64,000 nucleotides of DNA, taken from a virus. Of the stretch, positions 3,500 through 38,191 are shown in pieces. The stretch spans positions 32,001-96,000 of IMG/VR virus record IMGVR_UViG_3300021400_000020; one strand, written 5' to 3'. The notes beneath the pieces were generated by a model. That model had not been told where the DNA came from, ran no database searches, and worked only from the letters and a program-made list of their open reading frames with translations. The first letter of the stretch is position 1. Each line of letters begins with the position of its first letter. The position numbers and the translations under genes were made by a program.

Positions 3500-3527
3500 T
3501 TAACCCCATAAACCCCATTACCCCATG
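3500..3527 (+). repeat. AACCCCAT leader repeats running into the ATG at 3525
   Basis: TTAACCCCATAAACCCCATTACCCCATG. Confidence 0.8.
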
Positions 3528-3944
3528 AAAAAAATAATCACCCTGATAGCACTCTTGTGCATCACCATCACACTCTCCGCACAGAACAACAACCCTCGTC
3601 CAGACGACATCTATTCCCTTGCCAATGGTTATAACGAGAAAGTCCAAAAGGAAAAAATCAATCAGGAACGCATGGCGAAAGTAGAAGCCAACAAGAACGC
3701 CATCTTTGCAGCTGGCACAGCACTCAAGTCATCCGCCAACTGGCAATGGGTAGCTTTCGGCAGTGCAGCCGTCGGTGGAGCAACATTAGCCATCGGCTTC
3801 GACCAGAAAGAGGATGCACTGAAAATCGTCGGTTACACCTGCATGGGCTTCGCACTCGTCTCGCAAGTCGTTTCCATCACCAAGAAATACAAGGCAGGAA
3901 AACAACTCCAAATCGGTGCAGGAAAAATTACCTACACCTTCTAA
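3525..3944 (+). CDS. secreted or membrane protein with N-terminal signal peptide
   Basis: MKKIITLIALLCITITLSAQ signal-like N-terminus plus C-terminal hydrophobic segments. Start abutted by AACCCCAT repeats. Confidence 0.75.
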   Translation: MKKIITLIALLCITITLSAQNNNPRPDDIYSLANGYNEKVQKEKINQERMAKVEANKNAIFAAGTALKSSANWQWVAFGSAAVGGATLAIGFDQKEDALKIVGYTCMGFALVSQVVSITKKYKAGKQLQIGAGKITYTF

Positions 3945-4131
3945 ATGCCATCCGATATAATCGACTGAACCATCGCGCTCACCACGTTCCGACGAATGGT
4001 GAGCCACATCGGGTAGGGGATGCTCGACAGTCCTCTACCCACTCCTTCACCCATCTTGGGTGACGTGTTTCATGTTGTTGCACATTTTTAGTTGCGCACA
4101 TGATGTATTTAAAAGTTTGAAAATTTTTTGG

Positions 4132-4165
4132 AGTGGCTGCCCGTGAGGGTCGCCACTTTTTCTTT
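4132..4165 (+). terminator. Rho-independent terminator
   Basis: About 11-bp GC-rich stem (AGTGGCtGCCC / GGGTcGCCACT) with a GTGA tetraloop, followed by TTTTTCTTT. Confidence 0.75.
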
Positions 4166-4444
4166 CGAAAATTATGTTCTACAACATATTTCCCAAAATA
4201 ATTAGAAAATAATTTGGCAGTTCAAACCGAAAACCATACATTTGCACTGTCAAAACCAGAATTGCGGTACGAAATGGATGCCGCCCAACAGCGGCTATTT
4301 TTGTATCTGCCAACATTGTAATAAACCTATTATATCCTATAGGCAATAATGAGTCGGGTAGTGGTGACACCCCGAAAGTTTCCGCAGTTTTGGACTTTGA
4401 CAACTCTTATTGCCTATTTTTTATTTTGTCAAAACCAAAACTTT

Positions 4445-4891
4445 ATGAGTAAAAGAATCAAAGCCCTTACAAATCAGCAGCGTGACTATGCCAAGATGCT
4501 GAAGGAGTATTTCAGCTTCCATCTTCGAGGCATGGAAGTGAAGGAAGAAGGCGGCCAGGTACAGGCGCAAGTCATCTACAGCGATTACAAGCACATCGAC
4601 ACCGTTCGACACGAACTCGCACAGATGATGCCAGAAGTGGAATTCACAAAGCTTCGACGCGACTTTTCCGATTCGGCAAAGATGTGGGCGTTGCGAAGCA
4701 TCTTATGGGAAGACTGCCCTGTGCCTGTCATCTACGTGCAGCGTGGAGAAACGCTCGTCCAAACCACACTCCGAGACATCGCCATCAGCGAACTCCGACA
4801 ACTGGAACTCGAAGACGGCGACATCCAGTATCAGGATTACGAGACAAAGCATCTCGACAACGAACGACTCGAAGAAAACTCTTGGAATTAA
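4445..4891 (+). CDS. hypothetical protein (148 aa)
   Basis: ATG at 4445 (MSKRIKALTNQQRDY...) inside track ORF 4349..4891. Stop is immediately followed by an A-type hairpin. Confidence 0.7.
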   Translation: MSKRIKALTNQQRDYAKMLKEYFSFHLRGMEVKEEGGQVQAQVIYSDYKHIDTVRHELAQMMPEVEFTKLRRDFSDSAKMWALRSILWEDCPVPVIYVQRGETLVQTTLRDIAISELRQLELEDGDIQYQDYETKHLDNERLEENSWN

Positions 4892-4920
4892 CCACCGTGC
4901 CCGAAAGTTCTGCTTTCGGG
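4892..4920 (+). repeat. A-type hairpin (CCACCGTG CCCGAAAG ttctg CTTTCGGG)
   Basis: Starts 1 nt after the stop codon at 4891. Confidence 0.9.
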
Positions 4921-4922
4921 AT

Positions 4923-4959
4923 TCCCATTCATCAACCCCATCAACCCCATTTTCCCATG
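4923..4959 (+). repeat. AACCCCAT leader repeats running into the ATG at 4957
   Basis: TCCCATTCATCAACCCCATCAACCCCATTTTCCCATG. Confidence 0.8.
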
Positions 4960-5121
4960 ATTCTACTACTTATCATCGGCTCCCTCGTCTCAGCCATTAT
5001 CGACATCCTCTTGAAGAGACGTAACGGCTTCACGACCGAAGAGCAAGCCCTGCTCCAGTCGAACAGCATCAACGAGGACGAACTCCGAGAACTCCGCAAG
5101 AACCTCTCCAACTTCAGGTAA
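4957..5121 (+). CDS. small membrane protein (54 aa)
   Basis: MILLLIIGSLVSAIIDILL... starts right after AACCCCAT repeats. The longer track ORF 4684..5121 overlaps the previous gene. Confidence 0.55.
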   Translation: MILLLIIGSLVSAIIDILLKRRNGFTTEEQALLQSNSINEDELRELRKNLSNFR

Positions 5122-5125
5122 TCCA

Positions 5126-5191
5126 CCACCGTTCCCGAAAGTTCTGCTTTCGGGTATTGTCCTTCTCAGTACCCGAAAGTTCCGCTTTCGG
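5126..5191 (+). repeat. A + B hairpin pair
   Basis: CCACCGTTCCCGAAAGTTCTGCTTTCGGG, then CCTTCTCAGTACCCGAAAGTTCCGCTTTCGG. Confidence 0.9.
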
Positions 5192-5227
5192 TTCCCCATC
5201 AACCCCATTAACCCCATCAACCCCATG
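5192..5227 (+). repeat. Four CCCCAT units (C4 runs spaced 5 nt apart) running into the ATG at 5225
   Basis: TTCCCCATCAACCCCATTAACCCCATCAACCCCATG. Confidence 0.85.
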
Positions 5228-5521
5228 CTTACACTCAACGATATCCGCAAACTGCAAGGTCCAGACTCCGACATCGAATGGACTTGCACCTCCATCAGCG
5301 AGGAACTGTCAGAGACATGCAGGAACTTCTTCACCCTGCCCATCCTCCTCACACTCTTTTTCAAGTTCGAAGTAGAGTGGGAGGGACACCTGCTCGAAAT
5401 GCAGCAGAACGCATCCAACGTAAAGCTGCGACTCGACAACCGAACTGCCACCATCCCCGTCAACACCCGTGGCTACGTCACCTCCTCCGACTACGCTCAA
5501 GCATTTGCCTCCCTTGTCTAA
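5225..5521 (+). CDS. hypothetical protein (98 aa)
   Basis: ATG directly preceded by four CCCCAT units. Confidence 0.65.
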   Translation: MLTLNDIRKLQGPDSDIEWTCTSISEELSETCRNFFTLPILLTLFFKFEVEWEGHLLEMQQNASNVKLRLDNRTATIPVNTRGYVTSSDYAQAFASLV

Positions 5522-5553
5522 TTCCGTTGTTTCCCTGCAATCCTTTTTCTCTC

Positions 5554-5619
5554 GCCACCGTCCCCGAAAGTTTCGCTTTCGGTCTTTGATTTCTCAGTAC
5601 CCGAAAGTTTTGCTTTCGG
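5554..5619 (+). repeat. A + B hairpin pair in the convergent gap
   Basis: GCCACCGTCCCCGAAAGTTTCGCTTTCGG, then TTTCTCAGTACCCGAAAGTTTTGCTTTCGG. Confidence 0.9.
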
Positions 5620-5622
5620 CAC

Positions 5623-5668
5623 AAAAGCGAGGAAGTGACAACAACCGTTGCCACTTCCCTGCTTTTTC
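5623..5668. terminator. Bidirectional intrinsic terminator between convergent genes
   Basis: GGAAGTG/CACTTCC stem plus inner CAAC/GTTG stem. Flanked by AAAA on the 5' side and TTTTT on the 3' side. Confidence 0.65.
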
Positions 5669-5679
5669 GTGTTTGTCAA

Positions 5680-11600: not shown

Positions 11601-12957
11601 CCGACTTCTGAACCTCGAAACTCAGACGCTCGTAGGCTTGCTCCAACTCCTTCACACTGCGCCAACTCCTTGGGTCGCCGACAATCTCACGGTAATGCTC
11701 GGCGGTCAGCGAAGCGGTCTTTTCCAGCACCGTCAGACGTTGGAACTCCTCTTCCACACGGGCAATCTCCTTCACACCATCGTCCGTGGTGGCATCGATG
11801 GTTTTGCGGTATTCGGTTAAGCCCGTCTTCAGCCGCTCAATGTCCTTCACACTGTTGGCAAAACCCGAACCACCCTCGGCAATACTGCTAATATGCCCTT
11901 TGGCTTCCAAAATGCGCTCGTTGGCTTGCTGCAAGTCGGCGGTCATCTTGCGGATGGTCTCGTCCACACGCATCAAGCTACTGGCGTCAGTCGTTGCCAG
12001 ACTCTCCCTGTACTGCTGCAAGAGTTTGATGCTCTCCTGCAACTGGGTACTGTTCAAACCTGTGGTTGGAGGAGCACCTGCGGCACTCAATGCCTGACGT
12101 GCGGCGGTAGCTTGCTCATAGCTCTGCATGATACCACCAGCCCGCTCGCTCAGCGAGGTCTGAGCACGCTGCTGAATGGTGTCGTTCACACTTTGCAAAC
12201 TGGCTTTGACCTTTTCAAGCACCTTGGCTTCCAGATTGCCTGCATCCACCATACCCTGCAAGAAACGCTGCATATCCGACAGCTGCTTGTCGGTGGCGGC
12301 ACTCAGGTCCTTCAAGAGGGTGTCACCACCTGCCTTCTTGAAATTCTCAAAGGTGATGGCGTTGATGCGTTGGGTAATCTTCGTCCACTCCTTGCTGTTC
12401 TTCGACAAGACGTCGCGCTGCTCGGTCAAGACACGCTTCAGACGCTCGTTTTCATCAAGACTACCCTTCGTATAGTTGCTGCTCTGCTTCCAAGCATCGG
12501 CAAATCCAGCCTTCAATTCCTTAATGCGCACCTCTAACTGGGAAATATGGTTGGCTAACCGACGGAAAGACTCCATGTCCTCGTCGGTCATCGTACTCTT
12601 GCCAAATTTGCGCATCTCGTTCCTCGCCTGACTTAATGCCGTGGTCAGGTCGCGCACCGACATGCCCGTCATATTCGTCAGACTCTCTTGCAGACGGTTT
12701 AGATTCTCACGGCTCTGCTTGATAAGGCGGTTCTGCGTCTTGAGTTGTTCCTCCGTTTGTTTCATCTGCACCTGTAAGTCCTTTCCCTTAGTTCCTGCCT
12801 TCTCTGCTTCGCTAAGGGACTCGTACTGCGCTTGGAGACTCTTCAGTTCTTCCTCCAACTTATGAGCGGTATCGGTCAGCAACTTAATCTGCTTGTTAGA
12901 TTCCTTCGTCGTAACATGCACCTGCACATTACTCACATAACTTGATATTCCTGGCAT
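5680..12957 (-). CDS. tail tape measure protein (2425 aa)
   Basis: Long coiled-coil N-terminal half. Core region ...FATQAGKLGI...GGAEAIAGLAKVNDVLGE...GSSILNLGNNTAASYQGIMEYVRRLGAVGATAKMTMPQLIALGGRLDAVGISAEQGSTAL... matches my recollection of the TP901-type TMP core. Hydrophobic segments are also present. Confidence 0.9.
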   Translation of the reverse strand: MPGISSYVSNVQVHVTTKESNKQIKLLTDTAHKLEEELKSLQAQYESLSEAEKAGTKGKDLQVQMKQTEEQLKTQNRLIKQSRENLNRLQESLTNMTGMSVRDLTTALSQARNEMRKFGKSTMTDEDMESFRRLANHISQLEVRIKELKAGFADAWKQSSNYTKGSLDENERLKRVLTEQRDVLSKNSKEWTKITQRINAITFENFKKAGGDTLLKDLSAATDKQLSDMQRFLQGMVDAGNLEAKVLEKVKASLQSVNDTIQQRAQTSLSERAGGIMQSYEQATAARQALSAAGAPPTTGLNSTQLQESIKLLQQYRESLATTDASSLMRVDETIRKMTADLQQANERILEAKGHISSIAEGGSGFANSVKDIERLKTGLTEYRKTIDATTDDGVKEIARVEEEFQRLTVLEKTASLTAEHYREIVGDPRSWRSVKELEQAYERLSFEVQKSGVSAEEFARKSEVMQLIKNRLNELKAGFQSVWQTSENASNNSVATNLRVIEVLKQEQQTLAKTQSQWAIYEKRINSVKFSNWMKTGGGNVLADIGNATDKQLSDVQRFLQGMVDAGNMEERVLERVKNQLEAINDTIQHRAQTSLEDKAQQAMNYTSGSQSTTKIQENIKLLQQYRENLETTNEGGLSRVDETIRKMTADLQQANDRVLEAKKYLENVNSGNGFKGTLTDLDRLRNGLRAYKSTLDVTSKDGQEKIIAVERELQRLDMLQETATLTAERFDEILKNPKGVKNIDELRMAYKRLKFEINNTELTQDEYIAKAAQMKAIDKQMKELTETWTHHQSGIRGAINRLKSYIAVYLGFNAIMNEVRKQFGHIMELSDQMTNVQKVTNMTTEEVRRLSKSLQDLDTRTTTHDLMEFATQAGKLGIYTEHGLEGMKGFVEMGERINATLGEDIGGAEAIAGLAKVNDVLGETKKHGDDVGEALDAAGSSILNLGNNTAASYQGIMEYVRRLGAVGATAKMTMPQLIALGGRLDAVGISAEQGSTALIHLIRGVMNHTFEMAKAAELAPTYLQSLIDEGKSYEALVAVLEKIEDAEDRAGKVQEVMNAVGTGRMKQSAGLAMTLSSLATNTAALGDALQYASEGYESATVGMGNVSVMSREFTKVQDNAAGSLARLRNAFNELFTNSVIYDFFNGIIKGLGNFLSWMQKGSQSIVSWQSTIKALILTLISLQLNIGTKFRQALEHGSRALKQFWQRLVAAQGAAQTFKVAIEGLKSALKTFIVFAVLDGIIKLIQYIRKGVEATKEFNEAIAAAAKEEDEMIAKSRQLSDRISQLTKNNEQNVDSHRELKKTINDLNGVMQSYLGFQLSETNLLKNQTQARDLLNSKIRETIVLKKQEAAEKLLEEKYGTTRENRWTGVRDKLTEEVGDRNTSVIESALRRTMQRLVDALPKSELKNSQDNWGVQNMRQGNMMEYLITQSGLKLNKTAKDAIYDNFDDIKKLWNDLVKERGERVRLAESTGAQMDEAVTRSYQDTLKMLNSTLKEIQNLQKQFNGSTDKKERQQLAQRLVELSADYQNLAHQAGPRMSGQVLQRVENNNRYLQGQVRNQWEDIAHPNVWGKNGTTLDKMDTETLKNYADYLDSVVENGLKVGQQFSKIYADLVKKGVLDDSMSMEDAQRSVKEEYDKVKAELDRRHDTIQGNYKSDKNSDRDKDKWKREAKDERDATLAQLDAYYQEREALIKQRLAEESITEEEAERRNNENELVWLADRMKLRKQWTKQLNATESKQFVEHWNNELKLRKANWSLIQKFMYDVRSEYDGATRKMQEDATKIQEIIHKHKDAIEKILLEGDFTGKVREEFRRSMDTIGFIFGINEEAEERTKALAEKRLAQLQTWARDAYSLTIEQLKEAMRKEDNIYHVWFEGLGDNADAELTAFLQKLQQYSDDIIDAERKAAKEYTRVADKIWTGRREEGLGGRTQSELAEDRERRSQSGQTAANYASSWGFGGELVSANAEIDVIYAQMEAKKAYIALLQQETDKHIENMKAQEAETTARLAAKELDYARRSSSMSDEERKAAENEIQSLEARRASLQMSVRELQEEQNIALSDSYTAMTDLQEKYMQKMVERAARDFDTLQEYSNEMSSFAQSFGEGVFGSKEDRQNAAKQLLTDVLTTTKNLVQQYLIQVSTKRTVDQMEVQLEAQKQTQIQALRQKSLADYGAKKIAELEVEGSTSTAEAAVGGIKGTSQEVAKKGWLGLAIGAAISLALSSLLGLALGAINKSKSEVAAATGASSGQLKAGFLTYAEGRYPVLGADGETYMAKREDKLQTKIYRGGAHYGIFSEKMPEAVIDGPTTQKLVLNYPEIWDNIQVLSKTGVIPNYPKRRKQRGVATYADGNLDEIGTTTDAGAAVDDGGDSMEGMQSLIAANTAMLKALHAQLEAGIDAHVDMYGDNGVRQRMKKAERFMQRRGRG
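10600..12540 (-). repeat. Diverged internal tandem duplication (about 0.93-0.98 kb unit, two copies) inside the tape measure gene
   Basis: Protein pairs LKAGFADAWKQSS/LKAGFQSVWQTSE, ATDKQLSDMQRFLQGMVDAGN/ATDKQLSDVQRFLQGMVDAGN and IKLLQQYRESL...RVDETIRKMTADLQQANERILEAK/IKLLQQYRENL...RVDETIRKMTADLQQANDRVLEAK. The nucleotide offset is 984 nt at one landmark and 933 nt at another. Coordinates are approximate. Confidence 0.8.
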
Positions 12958-12972: not shown

Positions 12973-13000
12973 TTTTCACTTTGCACTCTTCACTTTTCAC
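12973..13000 (-). repeat. 28-nt element, copy 1 (mRNA sense GTGAAAAGTGAAGAGTGCAAAGTGAAAA), upstream of the TMP start
   Basis: 27 of 28 nt identical to 16430..16457. Ends 15 nt before the ATG at 12957. Confidence 0.7.
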
Positions 13001-13017
13001 TTCTCACTTTTCCCTTC

Positions 13018-13545
13018 TCACGTCCAGTTCCTCGTCGTCTGACGCTTGTAGCCATTGCTACGGAGGAACTGTCCTTGTGTGGTGGCATTCGCCACACTCT
13101 GCATGATGACAACACTGCCCGTATAAGCATACTGCCGAGCAAGCCTATCCATCAGCATCCTGGCGTGAAGACGAATTTCACTCATCATAAACGGCTTCGC
13201 CATACGAGGCTTGCCGTCAGGACGAGGGATAGGTCTGAGCGGCTTACCCGTCGTCAGCTGGGGAATAGTCATGTATTTCATGCCCTTGCCAACCGCCATC
13301 TCCACATACTGAGCATAGTTCATGTAATAAAACTGAATCAGGGCTTCGTCACCATTCGCATTGTTGTGGATGTCGGCATGGATGCTGCGCTCCAAGTCAC
13401 CCGAAAACTTTTTGCCGTAGGGACTAATCTCTAAGTCCTGCATGTTCTGAAGAATCTGCTCCGTCGTTTCAAGGGCGAAATAATGAATGCGTTGCTGAAC
13501 CTTTTTGTTCATCAACGCAAATTCATCTATCACTTGCTTTGCCAT
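13018..13545 (-). CDS. hypothetical protein upstream of the TMP (175 aa from ATG 13545; the track TTG start is at 13581)
   Basis: ORF in the late (-) string. The position would fit a tail assembly chaperone, but no motif or slippery site was identified. Confidence 0.65.
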   Translation of the reverse strand: MAKQVIDEFALMNKKVQQRIHYFALETTEQILQNMQDLEISPYGKKFSGDLERSIHADIHNNANGDEALIQFYYMNYAQYVEMAVGKGMKYMTIPQLTTGKPLRPIPRPDGKPRMAKPFMMSEIRLHARMLMDRLARQYAYTGSVVIMQSVANATTQGQFLRSNGYKRQTTRNWT

Positions 13546-13654: not shown

Positions 13655-13681
13655 ATCCTCCCCCGAAAGTTCTGCTTTCGG
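13655..13681 (+). repeat. A-like hairpin lacking the CCACCGT flank
   Basis: CCGAAAG ttctg CTTTCGG. Confidence 0.7.
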
Positions 13682-13688
13682 TCCTTAG

Positions 13689-13718
13689 TTTCTCCGTATC
13701 TGAAAGCTCTGCTTTCAG
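13689..13718 (+). repeat. B-type element with covarying stem (CTGAAAG/CTTTCAG)
   Basis: TTTCTCCGTAT CTGAAAG ctctg CTTTCAG. Confidence 0.8.
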
Positions 13719-13866
13719 CCATCAAAGAAACAAGGTTTCCACGCTCTCGTGAAAACCTTGAACTTTTGAGTCTCAATTCACGCAAAAAAATTGAAACTCC
13801 ATCTTTAAATCATGGCAAAGATACGACTTTCATCGTTCCCCTCAAAATCTTTCCGTCAATTTCTGC

Positions 13867-13940
13867 ACCACCGTCCACGAAAGTTCCTGCCACCGTTCCC
13901 GAAAGTTCCTGCCACCGTTCCCGAAAGTTCCGCTTTCGGG
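13867..13940 (+). repeat. 22-nt tandem array of A-type 5' half-sites (three units); only the last unit completes the hairpin
   Basis: ACCACCGTCCACGAAAGTTCCT / GCCACCGTTCCCGAAAGTTCCT / GCCACCGTTCCCGAAAGTTCCGCTTTCGGG. Confidence 0.85.
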
Positions 13941-13982
13941 TAAAAAGAAAGTTCCGCTTTCGGTTTAGCTTTCAGCCCTTGC

Positions 13983-14012
13983 TTTCTCCGTACCCGAAAG
14001 TTCCGCTTTCGG
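13983..14012 (+). repeat. B-type element (TTTCTCCGTA + CCGAAAG/CTTTCGG hairpin)
   Basis: Read directly from the sequence. Confidence 0.8.
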
Positions 14013-14560: not shown

Positions 14561-14620
14561 GTTTTCGTTATTGTTTTCGTTATCGTTCAAGAAATCCCTT
14601 CAAATCCTTTAAATCCTTGA
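14561..14620 (+). repeat. C-family repeat, copy 1 (GTTTTCGTTATCGTT-CAAGAAATCCCTTCAAATCCTTTAAATCCTTGA)
   Basis: About 50-60 nt direct repeat of 14658..14734. Confidence 0.75.
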
Positions 14621-14657
14621 TTTTTATCTACGGAGTCTCGGAGTAAAGGAATTTCCT

Positions 14658-14734
14658 GTTTCCGTTTTCGTTATCGTTATCGTCCAAGAAATCCTTTCAA
14701 ATCCTTAAAATCCCTGACCTCTTTAAATCCCTGA
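14658..14734 (+). repeat. C-family repeat, copy 2, with an extra TTTAAATCCCTGA unit
   Basis: ...CGTTTTCGTTATCGTTATCGTCCAAGAAATCCTTTCAAATCCTTAAAATCCCTGACCTCTTTAAATCCCTGA. Confidence 0.75.
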
Positions 14735-16429: not shown

Positions 16430-16457
16430 TTTTCACTTTTCACTCTTCACTTTTCAC
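16430..16457 (-). repeat. 28-nt element, copy 2 (mRNA sense GTGAAAAGTGAAGAGTGAAAAGTGAAAA)
   Basis: 27 of 28 nt identical to 12973..13000. Ends 12 nt before the ATG at 16417. Confidence 0.7.
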
Positions 16458-16460
16458 TTT

Positions 16461-18227
16461 TTATTTGCTCTCCGTTGATACAACCCCCGTCTTGCTGTTG
16501 TCCAGCGTCGTGAGGTTCTGCTGTTCTATCACCCATTTCAAGTGCTTGTCACAGTCATTGAAGGTGGAAATCATGTCCAAGAGCCATAGGTAACGACGCT
16601 GACTTGGACTCACCTGCTGCTCCTTCAGCAAATGCAACTCACGCTGGAACGTGCCTCCCTTACCAGAACTACCAGGACGTGAGCCGATCAGTTCGGGATG
16701 AACACCCATTGCAAAGAAGATGATACTGCTCACTTCCTCCAACTCGGCTTTTAAGTCCTTGGCGTTCTGAGGTTGTGGCACATCTACAATCTCAATCGAC
16801 TTCACGAGCGTCTTCTCATCTTGGCTCAGATAGGCATCCAATGCAACGGTCTTACCGTTATTGTCGCGCTTCTTCAGGAATTGGTTGATGTCGTTAATCA
16901 GACCCGTCTTGATAGCATCCTGCTCGTCCTCGTTCGTCGCTCCCATCTGGTCGTAGAGTTTCTGAAGGTAGTTGAGATTGATGTAGATGATTTTTCCCCA
17001 CATCGTAGAGTTGTTCCTCGCCGCTGCCTTGTCGAACATCATTGTATAGGCATAGTTATACACATAGCTCAGGAAGATACTCCACCACATAGGCTGTGGA
17101 TAGTAAGGGCGGAGTATGTTCGCACGTTTCAGAGGGATGCAGAACCATGCCGTGCGCTCATTCACCTTCTGACGTTGTTGACGCGATACCCACGAATTCA
17201 ATTCTTCAATGGCACTGTCGGAATTGATGACAGGGTAGGCGATGACCTCGCCAAATTGCAAGTCGGGAGTGCATTCCTTGCGCCAACGCTCGGCATAGAA
17301 GACATTCTCAATCTTCAAGTCCTTGCTCATCTCCTCGTAACGGGTGCAGACACAAGGCAGAAAACCGAGTTTCACAATCTTAGGATTCCACTTGCCGCTC
17401 TTACCTCGCGACAAGCCAATCGTAGGAAAGGCGATGTTCATGTGGGCATCGTCAGTACAATACTTCTCATAATGCTCACAGAGATTGTTGTTCTCAAGGA
17501 ACTCACGAAGCCATTGACTTGTGCTTTCCCATTTTTCATAGTCTTTGACAAGCTGATCGATTTCCTTGTCAAGGTACTCTTTGAGACGAGTATGCTTGCC
17601 ACCCTTACGCGGACCTTCCTCGCCACCGTTCCCGAAAATTTGGTTTTCGGGTAAAAGGTTACCGTTCCCGAAGGTTCTGCCTTCGGATTCCCCGTTCACC
17701 CCATCATCCTGCGACTCATCATCATCCAAGGCATCTCGTCGTGAAGATAACTCTATAAGTCTATTCAGAATCAGCGTACCAGCAAGAGGGTAGGGGATGC
17801 TCTCTTCCTTGACCGTCCCTCCAGCGTATCGTGCCCATACGTAAGTGGGTTTGGGACCATGCCCTTGCGTGAGGTTGATGATGTATTCCATAGCAGCAGC
17901 AGTGTAGGGGAGGGCTGCCACTAACTGCGCAATCCTGTTCGGCTGGTCGTTGGCACTGCCCCAGGCGATATACTTGCCTTTGACGGTCTTGCTATCCACA
18001 CTGATTGCCTGTATTTGCTTACCGTCGGGAATGAGGTTGCTGCCCGTACCAAGCATCGACTTGTTCGCCCATTCCGCGCAGCCACTCACCACCGAAGGGT
18101 CGTTATTCTTGCTGTTGCCAAACCCTGTCACCGTGATGGGAATATAACCACGTTTCTGCAAGCTCTGAATCTTGCTGAAGGCTTTATCAACGGTTTTTTT
18201 AAACTGATTCTTCTGATTCTTTGCCAT
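16461..18227 (-). CDS. portal-like protein (588 aa)
   Basis: Size and position fit a portal. C-terminal region ...YPQPMWWSIF...AMGVHPELIGSRPGSSGKGGTFQRELHLLKEQQVSPSQRRY... resembles portal stem/tunnel regions as I recall them. Not verified by search. Confidence 0.6.
   Translation of the reverse strand: MAKNQKNQFKKTVDKAFSKIQSLQKRGYIPITVTGFGNSKNNDPSVVSGCAEWANKSMLGTGSNLIPDGKQIQAISVDSKTVKGKYIAWGSANDQPNRIAQLVAALPYTAAAMEYIINLTQGHGPKPTYVWARYAGGTVKEESIPYPLAGTLILNRLIELSSRRDALDDDESQDDGVNGESEGRTFGNGNLLPENQIFGNGGEEGPRKGGKHTRLKEYLDKEIDQLVKDYEKWESTSQWLREFLENNNLCEHYEKYCTDDAHMNIAFPTIGLSRGKSGKWNPKIVKLGFLPCVCTRYEEMSKDLKIENVFYAERWRKECTPDLQFGEVIAYPVINSDSAIEELNSWVSRQQRQKVNERTAWFCIPLKRANILRPYYPQPMWWSIFLSYVYNYAYTMMFDKAAARNNSTMWGKIIYINLNYLQKLYDQMGATNEDEQDAIKTGLINDINQFLKKRDNNGKTVALDAYLSQDEKTLVKSIEIVDVPQPQNAKDLKAELEEVSSIIFFAMGVHPELIGSRPGSSGKGGTFQRELHLLKEQQVSPSQRRYLWLLDMISTFNDCDKHLKWVIEQQNLTTLDNSKTGVVSTESK
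17623..17651 (+). repeat. A-type hairpin inside the portal ORF (stem CCCGAAAA/TTTTCGGG, compensatory change)
   Basis: CCACCGTT CCCGAAAA tttgg TTTTCGGG. Translated in frame as ...NQIFGNGG... Confidence 0.85.
17659..17686 (+). repeat. A-type hairpin inside the portal ORF (stem CCGAAGG/CCTTCGG, compensatory change)
   Basis: TTACCGTTC CCGAAGG ttctg CCTTCGG. Translated in frame as ...EGRTFGNG... Confidence 0.85.
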
Positions 18228-18308
18228 GATGATTTGTTTTCGTTACTTAGGCAAAGTTAATATCTCCCCACCAAAATCAAGCGGACATTTTTCTCCCCCG
18301 CCCCTCCT

Positions 18309-18349
18309 GCCACCGTCCCTGCCACCGTCCCCGAAAGTTCCGCTTTCGG
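18309..18349 (+). repeat. A-type element with duplicated GCCACCGTCCC flank
   Basis: GCCACCGTCCCT GCCACCGTCCCCGAAAGTTCCGCTTTCGG. Confidence 0.8.
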
Positions 18350-18456
18350 TTTCCAGTTTCTCCGTATGCAGCGGTTTTGCCGCTGCCCCTTCCCCTGTTC
18401 CGCTTTCGGCTTTCAGTTTCTCCGTATGCAGCGGTTTTACCGCTGTCCCTTCCTCC
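18337..18456 (+). repeat. 60-nt direct repeat, two copies, each ending in a B-type element with stem GCAGCGG/CCGCTGC
   Basis: GTTCCGCTTTCGG(T/C)TT(C/T)CAGTTTCTCCGTATGCAGCGGTTTT(G/A)CCGCTG(C/T)CCCTTCC. Copies start at 18337 and 18397. Confidence 0.85.
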
Positions 18457-18550
18457 TGTTTCTATTTCTGCTTTCCCCTCCCCATCTTTTTTGTCCTTTC
18501 CTCTGTCATAGATTCCTCCTATCTTTGTTCAAAGCAAAGACACTTACTCC

Positions 18551-23543: not shown

Positions 23544-23611
23544 CCACCGTTCCCGAAAGTTCTGCTTTCGGGTTCAGAAAAAACCACCGTTCCCGAAAGT
23601 TCTGCTTTCGG
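23544..23611 (+). repeat. Two A-type hairpins in tandem (40-nt period)
   Basis: AAACCACCGTTCCCGAAAGTTCTGCTTTCGG occurs twice (23544-23572 and 23584-23611). Confidence 0.9.
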
Positions 23612-25521: not shown

Positions 25522-25661
25522 CCACCGTCCCCCGAAATTTTGTTTCGGGTTTCAAAAGCCACCGTTCTCAAAAGTTTCGCTTTCAGGTTCCCCTCTCCAC
25601 CGTCCCCGAAAGTTCTGCTTTCAGTCCTTCGTTTCTCCGTACCTCTCGGCTCAGCCGAGAG
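25522..25661 (+). repeat. Composite cassette: three A-type hairpins plus one B-type hairpin (stem CTCTCGG/CCGAGAG)
   Basis: A at 25522-25549, 25558-25587 (degenerate) and 25597-25624. B at 25632-25661. Confidence 0.85.
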
Positions 25662-25673
25662 CCCACTCATAAA

Positions 25674-25706
25674 AACCATTAACCCCATAAACCCCAAAAA
25701 CAAATG
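25674..25706 (+). repeat. AACCCCAT-type leader repeats running into the ATG at 25704
   Basis: AACCATTAACCCCATAAACCCCAAAAACAAATG. Confidence 0.7.
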
Positions 25707-27364: not shown

Positions 27365-27480
27365 GCCACCGTTCCTGCCACCGTTCCCAAAAGTTTCGCT
27401 TTCGGGTTCCCCTCTCCACCGTCCCTGAAACTTCTGCTTTCAGTCCTTCGTTTCTCCGTACCTCTCGGCTCAGCCGAGAG
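27365..27480 (+). repeat. Composite cassette (A, A, B), about 90 percent identical to 25558-25661
   Basis: A at 27365-27406 (duplicated flank) and 27416-27443 (stem CTGAAA/TTTCAG). B at 27451-27480. Confidence 0.85.
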
Positions 27481-27490
27481 CTTTCTCACC

Positions 27491-27523
27491 AAACCCATTA
27501 ACCCCATCAACCAAAAAACTATG
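27491..27523 (+). repeat. AACCCCAT-type leader running into the ATG at 27521
   Basis: AAACCCATTAACCCCATCAACCAAAAAACTATG. Confidence 0.7.
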
Positions 27524-28755: not shown

Positions 28756-28759
28756 CCCA

Positions 28760-28824
28760 CCACCGTTCCTGAAAGTTCTGCTTTCAGTCTTTCGTTTCTC
28801 CGTACCTCTCGGCTCAGCCGAGAG
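28760..28824 (+). repeat. A + B cassette
   Basis: CCACCGTTCCTGAAAGTTCTGCTTTCAG then TTTCTCCGTACCTCTCGGCTCAGCCGAGAG. Confidence 0.85.
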
Positions 28825-28834
28825 CCTTCTCACC

Positions 28835-28867
28835 AACCCCATTAACCCCATCCCCCCCCCCATCATG
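28835..28867 (+). repeat. AACCCCAT leader containing a C10 homopolymer (28852-28861), 3 nt before the ATG at 28865
   Basis: AACCCCATTAACCCCATCCCCCCCCCCATCATG. Confidence 0.8.
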
Positions 28868-29875: not shown

Positions 29876-29901
29876 TTCACCCCATTATCCCCGTCAACCC
29901 A

Positions 29902-30324
29902 ATGGAAAGAAGACTACTCCCTGTCTATTACGGATGGGCAAAACTTAACAAGATAGCCAAGCGTGAGGCTTTGACGGTCGTCTTTCTTAATGACTTCACA
30001 TCGCCACGCACCAACAAGGACGGCTACGATGGTGTGACACGATACATCGACGTGTGCGCCATGAGATACCAGACGGATGCAGAACGGGAGGATGCAAAGC
30101 TCTGCAACCGCATCTACACCGTCTATAGCATCTTCATGGATGACAAGCACATCCGTGGAAGTTTGGCAGCCGCCCTCCATGCCAACTTCATGGCTGACAA
30201 GAACAACGTCAGCGAGAAGGACAGAAAGGAAATCATGGAGAAGCTGAAGACTCACTACATAGCAACCCATCGAGGCTACAGAGAGCCAAGAGGCTACCAA
30301 CTAAGTATTGAATTTGAAGATTAA
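29902..30324 (+). CDS. hypothetical protein (140 aa)
   Basis: ATG preceded by degenerate CCCCAT units. Confidence 0.7.
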   Translation: MERRLLPVYYGWAKLNKIAKREALTVVFLNDFTSPRTNKDGYDGVTRYIDVCAMRYQTDAEREDAKLCNRIYTVYSIFMDDKHIRGSLAAALHANFMADKNNVSEKDRKEIMEKLKTHYIATHRGYREPRGYQLSIEFED

Positions 30325-31217: not shown

Positions 31218-31223
31218 TAAAGA

Positions 31224-31484
31224 ATGAAAAAGATTATAATATTTGTACTTGCTGCCTTTATGATGGTGGCATGCGACTATAGAACAGAAGCTGAAATAGA
31301 AGAGGCAAAGCGTTTAAAAGGTTGTAACATTATTGTTATTGATAGTTGTGAGTATCTTAAAAATGATATGGCTAATGGTAATCAAGGATTCGGACATTTC
31401 GCCCACAAAGGCAACTGCCGTTTTTGCAAAGAACGCAGACAAAAAGAATTAGAATGGTTGATAATCAAATTAAAAGAAAAATAA
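31224..31484 (+). CDS. putative lipoprotein (86 aa)
   Basis: MKKIIIFVLAAFMMVAC lipobox-like signal. AT-rich codon usage. Confidence 0.7.
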   Translation: MKKIIIFVLAAFMMVACDYRTEAEIEEAKRLKGCNIIVIDSCEYLKNDMANGNQGFGHFAHKGNCRFCKERRQKELEWLIIKLKEK

Positions 31485-31487
31485 GTT

Positions 31488-31694
31488 ATGCACATCTTTC
31501 ATAATCATTTTAAGTATAATGATAGTTGGATGTGGTGTGATTGGGTAAGACATCAGCCTTTATTCGGAATGCCACACCTTCACATTGCATGCACAAGATT
31601 TGACATGTATTTCATTTTTGAAATTATATGGGGAAAACTTCATTGGTATTGGACTACTGGGAATGTAAAATATAAAGCACGAAAAGAACACTAA
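31488..31694 (+). CDS. hypothetical protein (68 aa), Trp/His-rich
   Basis: ATG 3 nt after the previous stop. AT-rich island. Confidence 0.5.
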   Translation: MHIFHNHFKYNDSWMWCDWVRHQPLFGMPHLHIACTRFDMYFIFEIIWGKLHWYWTTGNVKYKARKEH

Positions 31695-31700
31695 TCAATC

Positions 31701-31856
31701 ATGAAACTAAAAGACGAAAACTCCCTTATTGATAAAATTGAATTTGCGGTTGCAGATTATTGCAGTGATTGTAATGATAACGACTTTAATATTATCTTGT
31801 CTGTATCAGCTTCAGATGGGTGGGTTAAAGTAAAAATAGAAAAAGAAAACAACTAA
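31701..31856 (+). CDS. small hypothetical protein (51 aa, below the track cutoff)
   Basis: Manual translation MKLKDENSLIDKIEFAVADYCSDCNDNDFNIILSVSASDGWVKVKIEKENN stop. Confidence 0.4.
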   Translation: MKLKDENSLIDKIEFAVADYCSDCNDNDFNIILSVSASDGWVKVKIEKENN

Positions 31857-31957
31857 CGATTATGAGAACAATAAAATTCAGAGGCAAAGATGTGACGATT
31901 ATAAAACTATCAAAACATAATCTCATTTAATTATAGAAAAAACGAAAAAATGGAACT

Positions 31958-32419
31958 ATGAACGAATTTCCAATGACTTACGATGATGCACTGGCCGTGA
32001 TTACGGCTTGTTGCAATGGTGCCAGAAACAAGCATCTGAAAGGAGCATTGCAAGTAGCACAGCGTGCCCTCCGCACCGAGATTGGACGGGGCCGAAGGTT
32101 CGACACAGACCTGGAAAGTGCTGAGAGCGACTACGTGAGAGACATTGCCTACGGGCAAGGCTTGGAAGGTGAGAGTGCTGACGATTTCTTCGGAGATGTA
32201 AAGGCCGACGGCTACGACTTGATGGAGGCTTTCCATGATGGAGCAGAATGGCAGCACGACCACAACGTCAGAAATGACAGATGGAAGGACTTCGACCATG
32301 TGAAGGGAATCCTGCGTTTGGTTCTGGAGAGCCACATGCACGGTGGTGAGTCTGACGAGGTGCTGGCAGAATTGGATCAGCAAGTACGCGATGCGTGGAT
32401 AGTGAATACTACGAATTAA
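31958..32419 (+). CDS. hypothetical acidic protein (153 aa)
   Basis: ATG ORF. GC content returns to the phage average. Confidence 0.7.
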   Translation: MNEFPMTYDDALAVITACCNGARNKHLKGALQVAQRALRTEIGRGRRFDTDLESAESDYVRDIAYGQGLEGESADDFFGDVKADGYDLMEAFHDGAEWQHDHNVRNDRWKDFDHVKGILRLVLESHMHGGESDEVLAELDQQVRDAWIVNTTN

Positions 32420-32486
32420 ACGAGTTTCACGGATGGCACGAAAATCCTTTCCGTAGGATATAAAAAAAACAAAGCATTGAATTTGA

Positions 32487-32515
32487 TTAACCCCATTAAA
32501 CCCATAAACCCCATG
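32487..32515 (+). repeat. AACCCCAT leader running into the ATG at 32513
   Basis: TTAACCCCATTAAACCCATAAACCCCATG. Confidence 0.75.
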
Positions 32516-32938
32516 AGCCAACCCATAATCGACAGGAACCAGCGTCGATACGAAATCGCAAAGGAAATGCTGCCTACCATCATGCGAACAGCATCCGCAA
32601 TATTAGCCTGTGGACACGAACTCGGACCCGAAGCAGAAGGAAAGACGCTTGCAGAATACTGTGCCGAATCCGCATGTGCGTATGCGGATGCACTTATCGC
32701 AGAACTAAAGAAGTCAACGGAAAACTTGACGCCAGTCGTAACGGACACCAAAGAAGTTGCCATTGGACAGGTCATAGAATTCGATGGCGTAAAACTGATA
32801 TGTGTAGAATTGCCAGAGGGAGTACATGAGTGTACGGGATGCGCATTCTATAACTCAGGCAGCTGCAGATACAAAGGTCCATGTAGTTTCACAACCCGCA
32901 CCGATGGCAAGGAAGTGATATTCATTCACAAAACTTAG
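32513..32938 (+). CDS. hypothetical protein (141 aa)
   Basis: ATG 32513 directly after the leader repeats (MSQPIIDRNQ...). C-terminal Cys cluster CTGCAFYNSGSCRYKGPC. Confidence 0.65.
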   Translation: MSQPIIDRNQRRYEIAKEMLPTIMRTASAILACGHELGPEAEGKTLAEYCAESACAYADALIAELKKSTENLTPVVTDTKEVAIGQVIEFDGVKLICVELPEGVHECTGCAFYNSGSCRYKGPCSFTTRTDGKEVIFIHKT

Positions 32939-32950
32939 AACTAATCAATC

Positions 32951-33842: not shown

Positions 33843-33855
33843 TCCAAGAACTCCG

Positions 33856-34961: not shown

Positions 34962-35077
34962 AAAAGAAATAATTTTATAAAGAGCCATACGGGGGCTGTG
35001 CGTGACAGTCCGCTAACAGTATAATCTGCCAGACACAGGTGCAACTCCTGTAGCCCTCGTTTAATATCAAAAAAACT

Positions 35078-35368: not shown

Positions 35369-35416
35369 TAAAGATAACATCAAACATCCGAACAATCAAC
35401 CAACGAATAGAGGACT

Positions 35417-35845: not shown

Positions 35846-35880
35846 ATCCCTGATAAAATTAAATCCCAGATTAAGACAAT
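35828..35880 (+). repeat. C-family repeat (TCCTTCCAAATCCTTTAAATCCCTGATAAAATTAAATCCCAGATTAAGACAAT)
   Basis: Near-identical copy at 36972..37026. Confidence 0.85.
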
Positions 35881-35993
35881 AGCAGCATTGGAACAGTGCG
35901 CAACTTCTGCGAAGCTAACCATACAGACACGCTCATTATAACAGGCGAAGGAGACAAGGTGCTTTTCGAAGCAATACTAAAAGACAAGGAATC

Positions 35994-36236
35994 ATGACTA
36001 AAAGACAAAGAAATAATTTGAACAGATTGCGAGAATTGGTTGCTGATTTTCAGCCATACATTCCTTATGTGCATGATAGCACTGTTATAGAGATATTCAA
36101 TTATATTGGGACTGTGCTGTATGGCGTTCTTGTAGATTGTCCTGAAAATGAAGAGTTAGAGTATAATCTTGAACAAATAGAAAAATCTCTACAAGAGTTT
36201 GAGAAATTATTAAAACATGAAAAAAGCATTGGATAA
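35994..36236 (+). CDS. hypothetical protein (80 aa)
   Basis: ATG ORF. Confidence 0.55.
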   Translation: MTKRQRNNLNRLRELVADFQPYIPYVHDSTVIEIFNYIGTVLYGVLVDCPENEELEYNLEQIEKSLQEFEKLLKHEKSIG

Positions 36237-36324
36237 ATGGTATGAGTGTTTTCGACTCTGTTTTAAAAAGTGATAAGGGCTTTGAGTGGAAATTAAACAA
36301 TTTAAACTATAGATAGAACGTGTT

Positions 36325-36903
36325 ATGGATTTAATAAAATGTAAATGTATAAGAACTGCAAGGGTAAATGGATTAACATTTGTTCCTGATGAAGTTTACT
36401 ACCTCGAAGAGCAGGTATTTACTAAGGAATATAAACCTGCCATACATCCTCAGCCTGCTCGTGGTTATCTCATCCGCTACAAACGCTATAAGGTCGCATT
36501 ACCAACAGAGGAACCACTGTTAGAAGACGATGATGATTTGTACCGTATGGTAAATGTACGAATAGCATATTTCTACGACCGCTCTTACTGCGAGCACCAC
36601 GATTGGAAAGATGAACGAGGATGTGATACAGAATGCTTTGAGGACCATTTCGTTACCATTAGGCCCACTCAAGATAGCGTTGTGCCTAAGTTTAAGAGCA
36701 AACTCTATACAAAACCATTGACAAGAAAGTTAAATAACATTCCTATGGAATTTGTAAAAGAGGACATCACAGGTTATATGAGACGAAACTGGCAGGAGCA
36801 GATGTATGCAAAGTTCGGCGGCATGAGTCCTGAAGACTGGGATTTCGATACCTTCATGCAAAGAATTGGTGAATACACGATGAATACGAAACAAAATAAA
36901 TAA
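36325..36903 (+). CDS. hypothetical protein (192 aa)
   Basis: ATG ORF. Confidence 0.7.
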   Translation: MDLIKCKCIRTARVNGLTFVPDEVYYLEEQVFTKEYKPAIHPQPARGYLIRYKRYKVALPTEEPLLEDDDDLYRMVNVRIAYFYDRSYCEHHDWKDERGCDTECFEDHFVTIRPTQDSVVPKFKSKLYTKPLTRKLNNIPMEFVKEDITGYMRRNWQEQMYAKFGGMSPEDWDFDTFMQRIGEYTMNTKQNK

Positions 36904-36971
36904 CCTCTACGGAGGAAAGGAGTTGTTTTTAGTGAGGAATTTTTACTTTTTACTTTTTCATTCAAAATCAT

Positions 36972-37026
36972 TCCTTCCAAATCCTTTAAATCCCTGATAA
37001 AATTATAAATCCCAGATTAAGACAAT
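36972..37026 (+). repeat. C-family repeat whose last bases supply the ATG of the next gene
   Basis: ...AAATCCCAGATTAAGACAATG. The other copy reads GACAATA at the same place. Confidence 0.85.
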
Positions 37027-37477
37027 GGCACGAATCCACCGCAATGGCAACATGCTTATCAGACTTGATAGCATCGTAGCAGTATCATCCGACATGGACA
37101 AACCTAAAGAATTGGCGATTTTCACCAACTCACCAGGAATATTCAAAATCCATTTTGAAAAAGACGAGGAAGTAACCAAATACATCGACGACCTGCAAGC
37201 AAGAATCGAGAAGGAACTTCCCGATTCTATAACCATGAGCAAAAAAGAGAAGACCAACAAAGACTTAACAAGTAAAATAATCCGCTCTACTTTCATCCGA
37301 GGAGAGGAGGACGGCAAGAAGGACATGCTGGACGCTGCCTGTGACTACCTCGAAAGCATCGAGATAGACGTGTATTTCAACGCGAACAAAGAGAAGCCAG
37401 ACTTCGACTATGAGCGATTCGTCAATGACTTCCGCACCTCCCTCACCAAAAAACTCCTGTCTCCAAACACTCTTTAA
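37025..37477 (+). CDS. hypothetical protein (150 aa)
   Basis: ATG ORF. Confidence 0.7.
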   Translation: MARIHRNGNMLIRLDSIVAVSSDMDKPKELAIFTNSPGIFKIHFEKDEEVTKYIDDLQARIEKELPDSITMSKKEKTNKDLTSKIIRSTFIRGEEDGKKDMLDAACDYLESIEIDVYFNANKEKPDFDYERFVNDFRTSLTKKLLSPNTL

Positions 37478-37480
37478 AGA

Positions 37481-37717
37481 ATGACCTACCAGGAATACAT
37501 ACAGCGACATATCATTGCAGCTGATTACAAAGAGCAGAATAACCAATGCGAAGCCGTTCCCATGATTTCAAAAGAGAATGCAGAGAAGGCTTGTGAGTTG
37601 GCAGTGTGCAACTTCGCTCAGGACCTACTACCGCTCTGCGAGTCCGCAAGAAAAGAACTATTGAAAAAAGTAATCATCGATTTCAAAACAAAATATGGCA
37701 ACAGAGAAATGCTTTGA
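37481..37717 (+). CDS. hypothetical protein (78 aa)
   Basis: ATG 3 nt after the previous stop. Confidence 0.6.
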   Translation: MTYQEYIQRHIIAADYKEQNNQCEAVPMISKENAEKACELAVCNFAQDLLPLCESARKELLKKVIIDFKTKYGNREML

Positions 37718-37952
37718 CTTAGACAGCATCCGCCGAAGCTGTCCGCACGGTTCCAGCGTTAACTTTCCAGTCGGCACCGTCATGCACGTCAAAATCGGCG
37801 ACATGAACTGCATCAAATGCCCCTGCTTTGGAGGAGCCGACGAATCAAATCCAAGCAACCAAAAGGAGATGGCAATCATCTGTCACTACCCACACTTCAG
37901 TCAACCAATGAAAACATTTCAACAAAATGAATCGAGTCCACCAAAAACATAA
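37695..37952 (+). CDS. small Cys-containing hypothetical protein (85 aa)
   Basis: Overlaps the previous gene by 23 nt. CPHG...CIKCPC. Confidence 0.5.
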   Translation: MATEKCFDLDSIRRSCPHGSSVNFPVGTVMHVKIGDMNCIKCPCFGGADESNPSNQKEMAIICHYPHFSQPMKTFQQNESSPPKT

Positions 37953-38090
37953 TAGCCGATGAATCATCAACCTCCTTTCATCAAAAAAGGGAATAAATTG
38001 GGAAATATTTAAAATTGCAAATCAACCGATGTAGCATAACGAATGCGAGGCTCATCCCCTGATGGTGGTTCCAACCCACCCATCGGTTTT

Positions 38091-38159
38091 TCAGTTTTTC
38101 CGAACCAAGTTCCGCTTTCGGTCCTCCCTCTCCACCGTTCCCCGAAATTTTGTTTCGGG
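38091..38159 (+). repeat. B-like plus A-type hairpins
   Basis: ...CCGAACCAAGTTCCGCTTTCGG then CCACCGTTCCCCGAAATTTTGTTTCGGG (stem CCCGAAA/TTTCGGG). Confidence 0.8.
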
Positions 38160-38163
38160 TTTC

Positions 38164-38191
38164 ATCAACCCCATAAACCCATCAACAAATG
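38164..38191 (+). repeat. AACCCCAT leader running into the ATG at 38189
   Basis: ATCAACCCCATAAACCCATCAACAAATG. Confidence 0.7.

Follow-up and report, generated by a model that had tools for sequence, protein, structure and literature searches.

The 64,000-nt stretch of viral DNA analysed here (positions 32,001 to 96,000 of IMG/VR record IMGVR_UViG_3300021400_000020; hereafter, the window) contains arrays of a G-free, 9-base tandem repeat, AACCCCATN (in general form (A/T)AACCC(C)AT), which abut the start codons of nine genes. These arrays look like an undescribed translation start signal, of host type, in bacteria that lack Shine-Dalgarno sites. They are not specific to the phage: Prevotellaceae and other Bacteroidales have the same 9-mer arrays. 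The case is built on the position, orientation, composition and predicted single-strandedness of the arrays, together with their presence in hosts and their conservation at orthologous host junctions. From these features we hold, with moderate confidence, that some of the plus-strand genes would have the arrays as their translation-initiation regions (intercistronic leaders), and that the arrays represent a host-type, Shine-Dalgarno-independent signal copied by the phage.

The octamer AACCCCAT occurs 18 times on the plus strand of the window and not once on the minus strand, whereas dinucleotide-preserving shuffles averaged 1.6 occurrences and never exceeded 6; the shorter CCCCAT is found 39 times on the plus strand and four times on the minus strand. 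Tandem Repeats Finder reported repeats of period 9 at 3502-3526, 4930-4950, 5194-5226, 25668-25701, 27490-27512, 32486-32514 and 39684-39717. The original prediction, made from the window alone, that tandem 9-mers run directly into plus-strand starts is therefore borne out by nine arrays; its coordinates were right within 1-2 nt, the true ATGs lying at 4957, 28865 and 32513 in the cases concerned. The nine start-proximal arrays have 2-4 units each and end 0-13 nt 5′ of, or inside, a plus-strand ATG. At 3525, 4957, 5225 and 32513 the ATG is formed by the CAT of the final unit plus a G. The ATGs at 25704, 27521, 28865, 29902 and 38189 lie 1-13 nt past the last recognisable unit, the distal part of these five non-fused arrays decaying to an A-rich tail or to a C10 run (28852-28861). 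All nine ATGs open predicted open reading frames (ORFs) of 54-196 aa that are consistent with a self-trained gene map.

The 11 arrays of the window all lie on the plus strand, and none on the minus strand, in agreement with the earlier statement that no minus-strand start shows the reverse complement. Nine of them have a forward, start-proximal and mostly intergenic layout; there is in addition one orphan unit. In each of the seven longer intergenic regions the array occupies the ATG end and hairpins the stop-codon end (7/7); by our own arithmetic from the gap lengths, the chance of such placement of the arrays is ~1e-5. Array genes make up nine of the 41 plus-strand genes and none of the 21 minus-strand genes (hypergeometric p ~0.017, again our arithmetic). 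A class-specific translation initiation signal had been one of the earlier proposals. The initiation role is the best supported part of that proposal, but the class is only descriptive: the arrays of other phage contigs follow the DNA strand and not the gene class, and a signal of the early class is therefore unproven.

The region from -40 to -1 of the array genes is 41% C, 33% A and only 4.4% G, compared with 13.9% G in the other plus-strand genes and 19% in minus-strand genes; upstream G depletion is present in every gene class of the window. A purine-rich, GGAGG-like sequence 4-13 nt upstream of the start is missing from these G-free arrays, as had been anticipated when they were said not to be Shine-Dalgarno sequences. 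For the same lack of G, they contain neither of the elements of a Bacteroidota sigma-A promoter (TTTG at -33, TAnnTTTG at -7). They also differ from the iterons of replication origins, in which repeats of 17-22 bp form one or two clusters beside a replication gene; here, a 9-nt unit is dispersed over twelve sites, each at a gene boundary. They do have the form of tandem direct repeats (units of 5-11 nt, at least two copies, head-to-tail), the number of units being 2-4 in the window and reaching 10 in hosts. When five of the regions preceding array genes were folded as RNA, the upstream hairpins were paired, with z-scores of -2.7 to -7.5 in four of them (the fifth, 38090-38210, gave a non-significant -0.97); in the centroid folds of all five, the array and the AUG were predicted to be unpaired.

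To look for the repeat in hosts, one genome per bacterial species was scanned with the pattern CCCAT-H-AA-H x3, that is CCCATHAAHCCCATHAAHCCCAT, each match being taken as an 8-kb locus. At least 115 bacterial loci matched, when ~1-2 would be expected by chance according to our estimate. Among the matches listed, to which the host counts below also refer, ~89 (~77%) belong to Bacteroidota, mostly metagenome-assembled genomes (MAGs) of rumen and gut Prevotella, Prevotellaceae, Bacteroidaceae and Bacteroidales; the isolate Hallella multisaccharivorax DSM 17128 is also present (locus L171), and several MAGs matched on 2-4 contigs. Orientation was assessed on 85 G-poor arrays of at least three units from Bacteroidales loci, using a simple ORF filter. 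A co-oriented, coding-like ORF starts within 60 nt downstream of 34 of the 85, compared with five that have a start in the reverse direction. Of those 34 forward arrays, 25 have the start at -2 to +20 nt, seven being fused to it as CCCATG. Upstream, a co-oriented gene typically ends 0-30 nt away, and the arrays take up entire intercistronic gaps. The C at -3/-4, which the original prediction had considered unlike the A-rich context expected, is evidently tolerated by Prevotellaceae and Bacteroidales hosts, whose own arrays are start-fused. Judging by N-terminal sequence, the downstream genes include trp genes and glyA-like, kdsB-like and rluD-like genes.

The number of units varies from 2 to 10. 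Two closely related MAGs (L195 and L267) differ by a unit-sized, 8-nt indel, while in the pair L250 and L158 the array is kept though the flanking sequence has visibly diverged; slippage thus appears to generate variation on a conserved theme. Some host arrays are located between convergent genes, inside the 3′ ends of ORFs, or in inverted pairs. The inverted pairs, of the form (ATGGG....)n - loop - (CCCAT....)n, were seen at L193, L224, L198, L235, L239, L243 and L265 and would form long hairpins; at L193 and L224 the pair remains linked to the 3′ end of the upstream gene, and the gene downstream is a different one. At L250, L259, L158 and L192, (GAAARTT)n repeats adjoin the CCCAT arrays.

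The strongest evidence for selection in hosts, and for a function in the forward, transcript-sense orientation, comes from sequence conservation at the junctions of trp operons. In two Prevotellaceae MAGs (L195 and L170), arrays span the distance from stop codon to start codon at the trp E-G, D-C, C-F and F-A junctions, several of them fused to the ATG; the G-D junction has no array in either. The ORFs concerned match the NCBIfam profiles of TrpE, TrpG, TrpD, TrpC, TrpF and TrpA, and the profile alignments begin at residues 1-4 for TrpG, TrpD, TrpC and TrpF, indicating that the array-adjacent starts of these four proteins are correct. The Trp proteins of the two MAGs are 57-74% identical, and nearly the same 32-nt, four-unit array is found at the D-C junction of both. 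At such divergence unconstrained intergenic DNA would be unrecognisable, so the retention of the junction arrays argues for selection.

A mechanism can be proposed on these grounds. The Prevotellaceae and Bacteroidales hosts would not use Shine-Dalgarno pairing, and the array would offer the ribosome 20-45 nt of RNA made of C, A and U only, which should pair neither with the adjacent stable hairpins nor with the G-poor message. Having no G to pair with C or U, the array RNA would stay single-stranded beside the hairpins. The absence of G also means that the array holds no AUG, GUG or UUG, so that the first G met would be that of the true AUG (...CCCCAUG). The ribosome may reach this AUG de novo or by sliding on from the upstream stop codon, and units would be gained and lost through slippage. 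The CCCAU core might be read by the ribosome itself, by protein bS1 or by some other factor. Acting in this way at the RNA level, in initiation or in coupling, the arrays would let the phage benefit from copying a host signal.

Several observations weigh against this reading. The starts and the operon structure are themselves predictions from sequence. The fold energies of the leaders (-3.2 kcal/mol for array genes versus -4.7 kcal/mol for the others) are separated by a small gap. Two arrays of the window (39684-39722 and 63433-63480) and the orphan unit precede no gene. The arrays occur on one strand only in three phage contigs: 11/11 in the window, 7/7 in L003 (a viral contig of 14.8 kb, unrelated but of the same metagenome, with CCCAT 53 times on one strand and twice on the other) and 13/13 in IMGVR_UViG_3300028048_000193 (L129+L029+L151). 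These strand-locked arrays sit on the globally C-rich strand whatever the direction of the genes, and in the last contig about nine of them are reversed relative to the genes, so that the mRNA would read AUGGG repeats; initiation leaves this strand-lock unexplained. L003 has arrays of up to nine units, four of its arrays ending 1-17 nt 5′ of an ATG. Finally, a need for unstructured, G-free RNA does not by itself account for the conservation of the CCCAT core and of the 9-nt period among species and unrelated phages. A passive landing pad failing in this respect, some specific reader is implied, either constitutive or regulatory. A stronger version of the proposal, which we put forward tentatively, is that Prevotellaceae and related Bacteroidales use the tandem CCCAU 9-mers as a dedicated, lineage-specific signal for ribosome recruitment or re-initiation. 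This signal would functionally replace the Shine-Dalgarno sequence at intercistronic junctions, would be read by a specific component (bS1, another ribosome-associated protein or a segment of rRNA), and would have been copied by rumen phages.

The need for a specific reader could also be satisfied if the arrays were operators for a trans-acting host protein that binds RNA (or single-stranded DNA) in a sequence-specific manner, its protomers occupying successive CCCAU units, covering the start and repressing or activating translation, with the phage genes plugged into the same circuit. A binding site is expected to keep its core and its period, as the CCCAT core and the 9-nt spacing are kept across species whose flanking proteins are 57-74% identical and across unrelated phages; the arrays overlap the AUG, and a like proposal exists for the TAACTGA repeats (PMC4679880). 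We consider it rather doubtful all the same, because no candidate binder has been identified, the downstream genes are unrelated housekeeping genes and phage ORFans with no obvious regulon logic, and the number of units varies from 2 to 10. A regulator encoded by the phage, another of the original suggestions, is unlikely: host housekeeping operons such as trp carry the same arrays, which makes it unnecessary. The related idea that the arrays are phage-specific promoters producing leaderless transcripts, or iterated sites for a phage transcription regulator of one temporal class, appears highly improbable. It would fit the confinement of the window arrays to plus-strand genes (p ~0.017), and the hairpins 5′ of each array could end the upstream transcript; but these hairpins have no U-runs, arrays lie at internal junctions of host trp operons, TTTG or TAnnTTTG boxes are impossible in G-free sequence, and the large proteins of the window showed no sign of an RNA polymerase.

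The strand-lock could be accommodated by supposing a strand-specific element acting at the DNA level in replication or structure (G-tracts on the lagging-strand template, priming sites, G-quadruplex (G4) or i-motif structures, or a recombination signal) that is found in gaps only through exclusion from coding sequence. The restriction to the C-rich strand in three phage contigs, the existence of reversed arrays and a negative GC skew of the array strand at 53 of 70 host loci would agree with it, as would the two window arrays that fit a G4 rule, although the skew is confounded by C-ending codon usage. We regard it as unlikely, since host arrays follow gene direction (at least 34 versus 5 among the matches listed), are start-fused and are kept at the same operon junctions, and since the CCCAT/ATGGG asymmetry outside the arrays is, by our estimate, about what base skew predicts. 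Nor do most of the arrays have the sequence for a G4. The rule of four runs of at least three Gs on one strand with loops of 1-7 nt is obeyed at 5192-5227, 28835-28867 and 39688-39722, the others having 2-3 runs. The claim of a G4 pattern was thus literally true of 5192-5227 and arguable for 28835-28861, while G-runs are too few in the remaining seven start-proximal arrays; with two out of nine qualifying, a DNA G4 switch is not a general function of the arrays. It is also quite unlikely, in our judgement, that they are neutral or selfish slippage-prone filler whose forward orientation is tolerated because the reverse would create upstream AUGs. Such filler would account for the unit-sized indel between L195 and L267 and for arrays between convergent genes, within 3′ ends of ORFs or in inverted pairs, and comparable repeats elsewhere are still of unknown function. 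However, it would hardly remain at the same trp junctions, with a near-identical D-C sequence, at 57-74% protein identity, and random slippage should give random units, not one unit recurring at independent loci, species and phages.

Other ideas were set aside as untestable or contradicted: a resemblance to the anticodon arm of the initiator tRNA (CAUAACCC), complementarity to 16S helix 44 (AUGGGAG), Rho rut sites, primase sites and REP/IS200-like hairpin mobility. Chi-like sites were set aside as well, CCCAT showing no skew outside the arrays above that predicted from base composition.

Taking the start-proximal arrays in order, the first (3500-3527, plus strand; TTAACCCCAT AAACCCCAT TACCCCATG) occupies the entire 34-nt gap after gene 2804-3490, and its last unit provides ATG 3525 of a predicted 139-aa signal-peptide protein. 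The array at 4922-4959 (TTCCCAT TCATCAACCCCAT CAACCCCAT TTTCCCATG), directly 3′ of the hairpin at 4900-4920, is fused to ATG 4957 of a predicted 54-aa membrane peptide. The four-unit array at 5192-5227 (C4N5 x4), the sole one with a perfect G4 pattern, has two hairpins on its 5′ side (5134-5154 and 5172-5192) and is fused to ATG 5225 of a 98-aa ORF. Three further arrays close cassettes of the order hairpin A - hairpin B - array: that at 25668-25706 decays to AAAAACAA before ATG 25704 (173 aa); that at 27486-27523 (AAACCCAT TAACCCCAT CAACC AAAAAACT) leads to ATG 27521 of a predicted 91-aa membrane protein; and that at 28831-28867 (AACCCCAT TAACCCCAT, the C10 run and CATCATG) leads to ATG 28865 of a predicted 140-aa membrane protein. 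The public call for this last gene, which runs to 29287, starts at GTG 28724, within the hairpin cassette and 141 nt upstream; the array-adjacent ATG looks like the better start. A degenerate array at 29876-29904 (TTCACCCCAT TATCCCCGT CAACCCAATG) fills the 26-nt gap 5′ of ATG 29902 (140 aa), the array at 32487-32515 (TTAACCCCAT TAAACCCAT AAACCCCATG) is fused to ATG 32513 (141 aa), and that at 38164-38191 (ATCAACCCCAT AAACCCAT CAACAAATG) lies directly 3′ of the hairpin at 38141-38159 and is followed by ATG 38189 (196 aa). Pfam and PHROGs searches with the proteins downstream of arrays returned essentially no annotation; four of these proteins have N-terminal signal or transmembrane segments.

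The orphan copies reported earlier are also present, all on the plus strand. The single unit CATCAACCCCATAAG at 38828-38842 comes after a copy of hairpin B, with no ORF for ~280 nt. The array at 39684-39722 (Tandem Repeats Finder, period 9) lies within the 3′ end of gene 39367-39753, the final gene of the plus-strand block, with no plus-strand gene downstream. The third, a degenerate array at 63433-63480, is placed between two minus-strand genes, reversed relative to both, and directly adjoins gene 63485-63946 at its stop end (63485). The homopolymer runs C10 (28852-28861, 4 nt before ATG 28865) and C9 (39091-39099) are candidates for slippage-length variation.

In the gaps before array genes, the order is stop codon, one or two strong hairpins, array and ATG. 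Hairpin module A consists of CCACCGT(T/C)CC plus CCCGAAAGTTCTGCTTTCGGG (also given as CCGAAAGTTCYGCTTTCGG), as at 4900-4920 on the plus strand, and has at least 16 copies in the window, among them those at 5134-5154, 23552-23572, 25531-25549 and 38141-38159; all share one absolute orientation and have no U-run. Hairpin module B, TTTCTCCGTAC plus CTCTCGGCTCAGCCGAGAG (25643-25661, plus strand; copies at 27462-27480, 28806-28824 and 38804-38822), is always immediately 5′ of the array; its copies share the 5′ flank TTTCTCCGTA, and the sequence of the stem varies among them with pairing kept. The hairpins upstream of arrays do not resemble intrinsic terminators, being followed by C-rich sequence and not by a T-run. 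TAnnTTTG boxes occur in the window at, for example, 18520, 23463 and 63363 (minus strand), and the 16-kb plus-strand block has one strong host-type promoter, at its head (TAnnTTTG, 23463). With this as the sole strong promoter and hairpins that lack U-runs, the arrays are most likely internal to polycistronic RNA, the operons being predicted.

Hairpins like repetitive extragenic palindromes (REP) are intergenic at no fewer than 16 sites, also at 13663-14012, 18331-18475, 23552-23611 and 40412-40432, with flanks CCACCGTTCC... and TTTCTCCGTA...; their stems vary but remain paired and have no U-run, and all copies face the same absolute way, including those that lie between minus-strand genes or 5′ of a promoter in the divergent region 18228-18550. 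Where minus-strand genes have long leaders, another tandem repeat is found, (GTGAAAA)n when read in gene sense, at 12973-13021 and 16430-16461, just upstream of the starts at 12957 (tape-measure gene) and 16417; seven near-matches to this type of repeat were counted against 0.73 expected. Repeats (AAGGATTT)n and (AACGAAAAC)n (14561-14722) precede the minus-strand start 14560. Two stretches have no plausible ORF, 3945-4348, which contains two TAnnTTTG boxes and a hairpin, and 38843-39118; tRNA and Rfam scans of the window, including both stretches, gave no match.

The phage is siphovirus-like: it encodes a tape-measure protein of 2425 aa, giant proteins resembling tail fibres, a head protease, a DNA methylase and a diversity-generating retroelement. 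The latter (43250-45393) comprises a reverse transcriptase (43250-44743, minus strand), a small ORF (44750-45178, minus strand) and 125-nt template and variable repeats (44528-44652 and 45269-45393) that are 91% identical, the variable copy lying at the 3′ end of a 2146-aa gene (45254-51694, minus strand). The promoter boxes and the provenance point to a host within Bacteroidales. The same genome is present as a 97-kb sheep-rumen metagenome contig, and an exact-protein look-up matched only that phage. No relatives were found among the INPHARED cultured phages by megablast of 25-40 kb or by tblastn of the 420-aa ORF 60492-61754 (minus strand; presumed head protein), nor in protein-based locus searches of IMG/VR with proteins of 1009 aa and 258 aa. 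A relative in IMG/VR (L007) shows 92% identity across 38825-49831. A rumen phage that is different elsewhere, L148 (IMGVR_UViG_3300031994_000200), shares 1.3 kb (31401-32713) at 99.3% identity, which indicates recent mosaic exchange; the segment includes the array at 32487-32515. GC skew is negative (C>G on the plus strand) across both gene-orientation blocks except at 30-38 kb, which has lower GC and no skew and may be acquired DNA. A crAss-like virion RNA polymerase with its promoters was considered and rejected: the three proteins of more than 2000 aa are tape-measure and tail-fibre-like and lack a DFDxD motif, and no early-promoter motif is reported in the phi14:2 paper.

Of the arrays in other phages, the reversed ones of IMGVR_UViG_3300028048_000193 start precisely with the upstream stop codon, reading TAATGGG or TGATGGG, and an AT-rich leader of 20-40 nt comes after them; in three cases, short array-encoded ORFs end at or overlap the next ATG. 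A CCCAT-N4 x4 pattern tried on IMG/VR proved too unspecific, most matches being Gly/Met-rich repeats encoded on the opposite strand.

The way in which Bacteroidota ribosomes, lacking Shine-Dalgarno pairing, select their start codons is understood only in part. The arrays offer a discrete, easily recognisable cis element that borders on the start or includes it, is kept at the same junctions in deeply diverged Prevotellaceae and is common to their phages, which makes the question of start-codon choice directly testable. They also provide a simple sequence marker tying uncultured rumen phages to Bacteroidales hosts, and they flag a systematic hazard in gene calling, exemplified by the public GTG start 141 nt upstream of ATG 28865.

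In Bacteroidota (Flavobacterium, Bacteroides, Prevotella), initiation is independent of Shine-Dalgarno sequences and leaders are A-rich and unstructured, accessibility of the AUG being the presumed determinant. The arrays resemble such leaders in having no purine-rich Shine-Dalgarno sequence and in being depleted of G upstream of the start, but differ in that they are C-rich (41% C), repetitive and, when fused, have C at -1 to -4. Iterated short RNA motifs that cover a start codon are known from TRAP, which binds (G/U)AG repeats over the trpG/trpP start regions in Bacillus, and from the T4 RegA operators on early mRNAs. Many of the clearest host arrays are likewise in trp operons; however, their motif is another one, with a 9-nt period and sites beyond trp, and nothing indicates regulation. 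The likeness to G4 and i-motif tracts is limited to a few sites: the complement of 5192-5227 reads G4N5G4N5G4N5G4 and 28835-28867 also qualifies, but most arrays have 2-3 runs and nothing links function to DNA structure.

Searches of the literature on motif strings and on Prevotella repeats found no description of the CCCAT repeat. Contiguous heptamers in Nostoc PCC 7120, and the cyanobacterial short tandemly repeated repetitive (STRR) sequences, occur within ~100 nt of starts, some overlapping them, and a regulatory or translational role with an unidentified binding partner has been proposed (bioRxiv 10.1101/2022.06.06.494920). These differ from the CCCAT arrays in unit and organism and in occurring in both orientations, and the effects measured concern promoter or regulator access and not translation. 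A closer match is the TAACTGA heptamer of marine Beggiatoaceae, for which 169 sets were described, mostly forward and ending ~1 nt before starts without a Shine-Dalgarno sequence (MacGregor 2015, PMC4679880). Cyanobacteria and a few Bacteroidetes have it as well; no function is known for it, and the binding of a post-transcriptional factor was proposed (PMC4679880). Both repeats are short, tandem and direct (2-6 or more copies for TAACTGA), mostly intergenic and forward, ending a few nt from the start, with no Shine-Dalgarno sequence, no functional theme downstream and some overlap with the end of the upstream ORF. The units are not the same, that of the CCCAT arrays being 9 nt long, G-free and from rumen Bacteroidales, in contrast to the 7-nt TAACTGA. 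What the CCCAT arrays add is their presence in the lineage's phages and their conservation at orthologous junctions of operons. The CCCAT repeat is a different repeat family of the same start-proximal kind as TAACTGA, its closest precedent.

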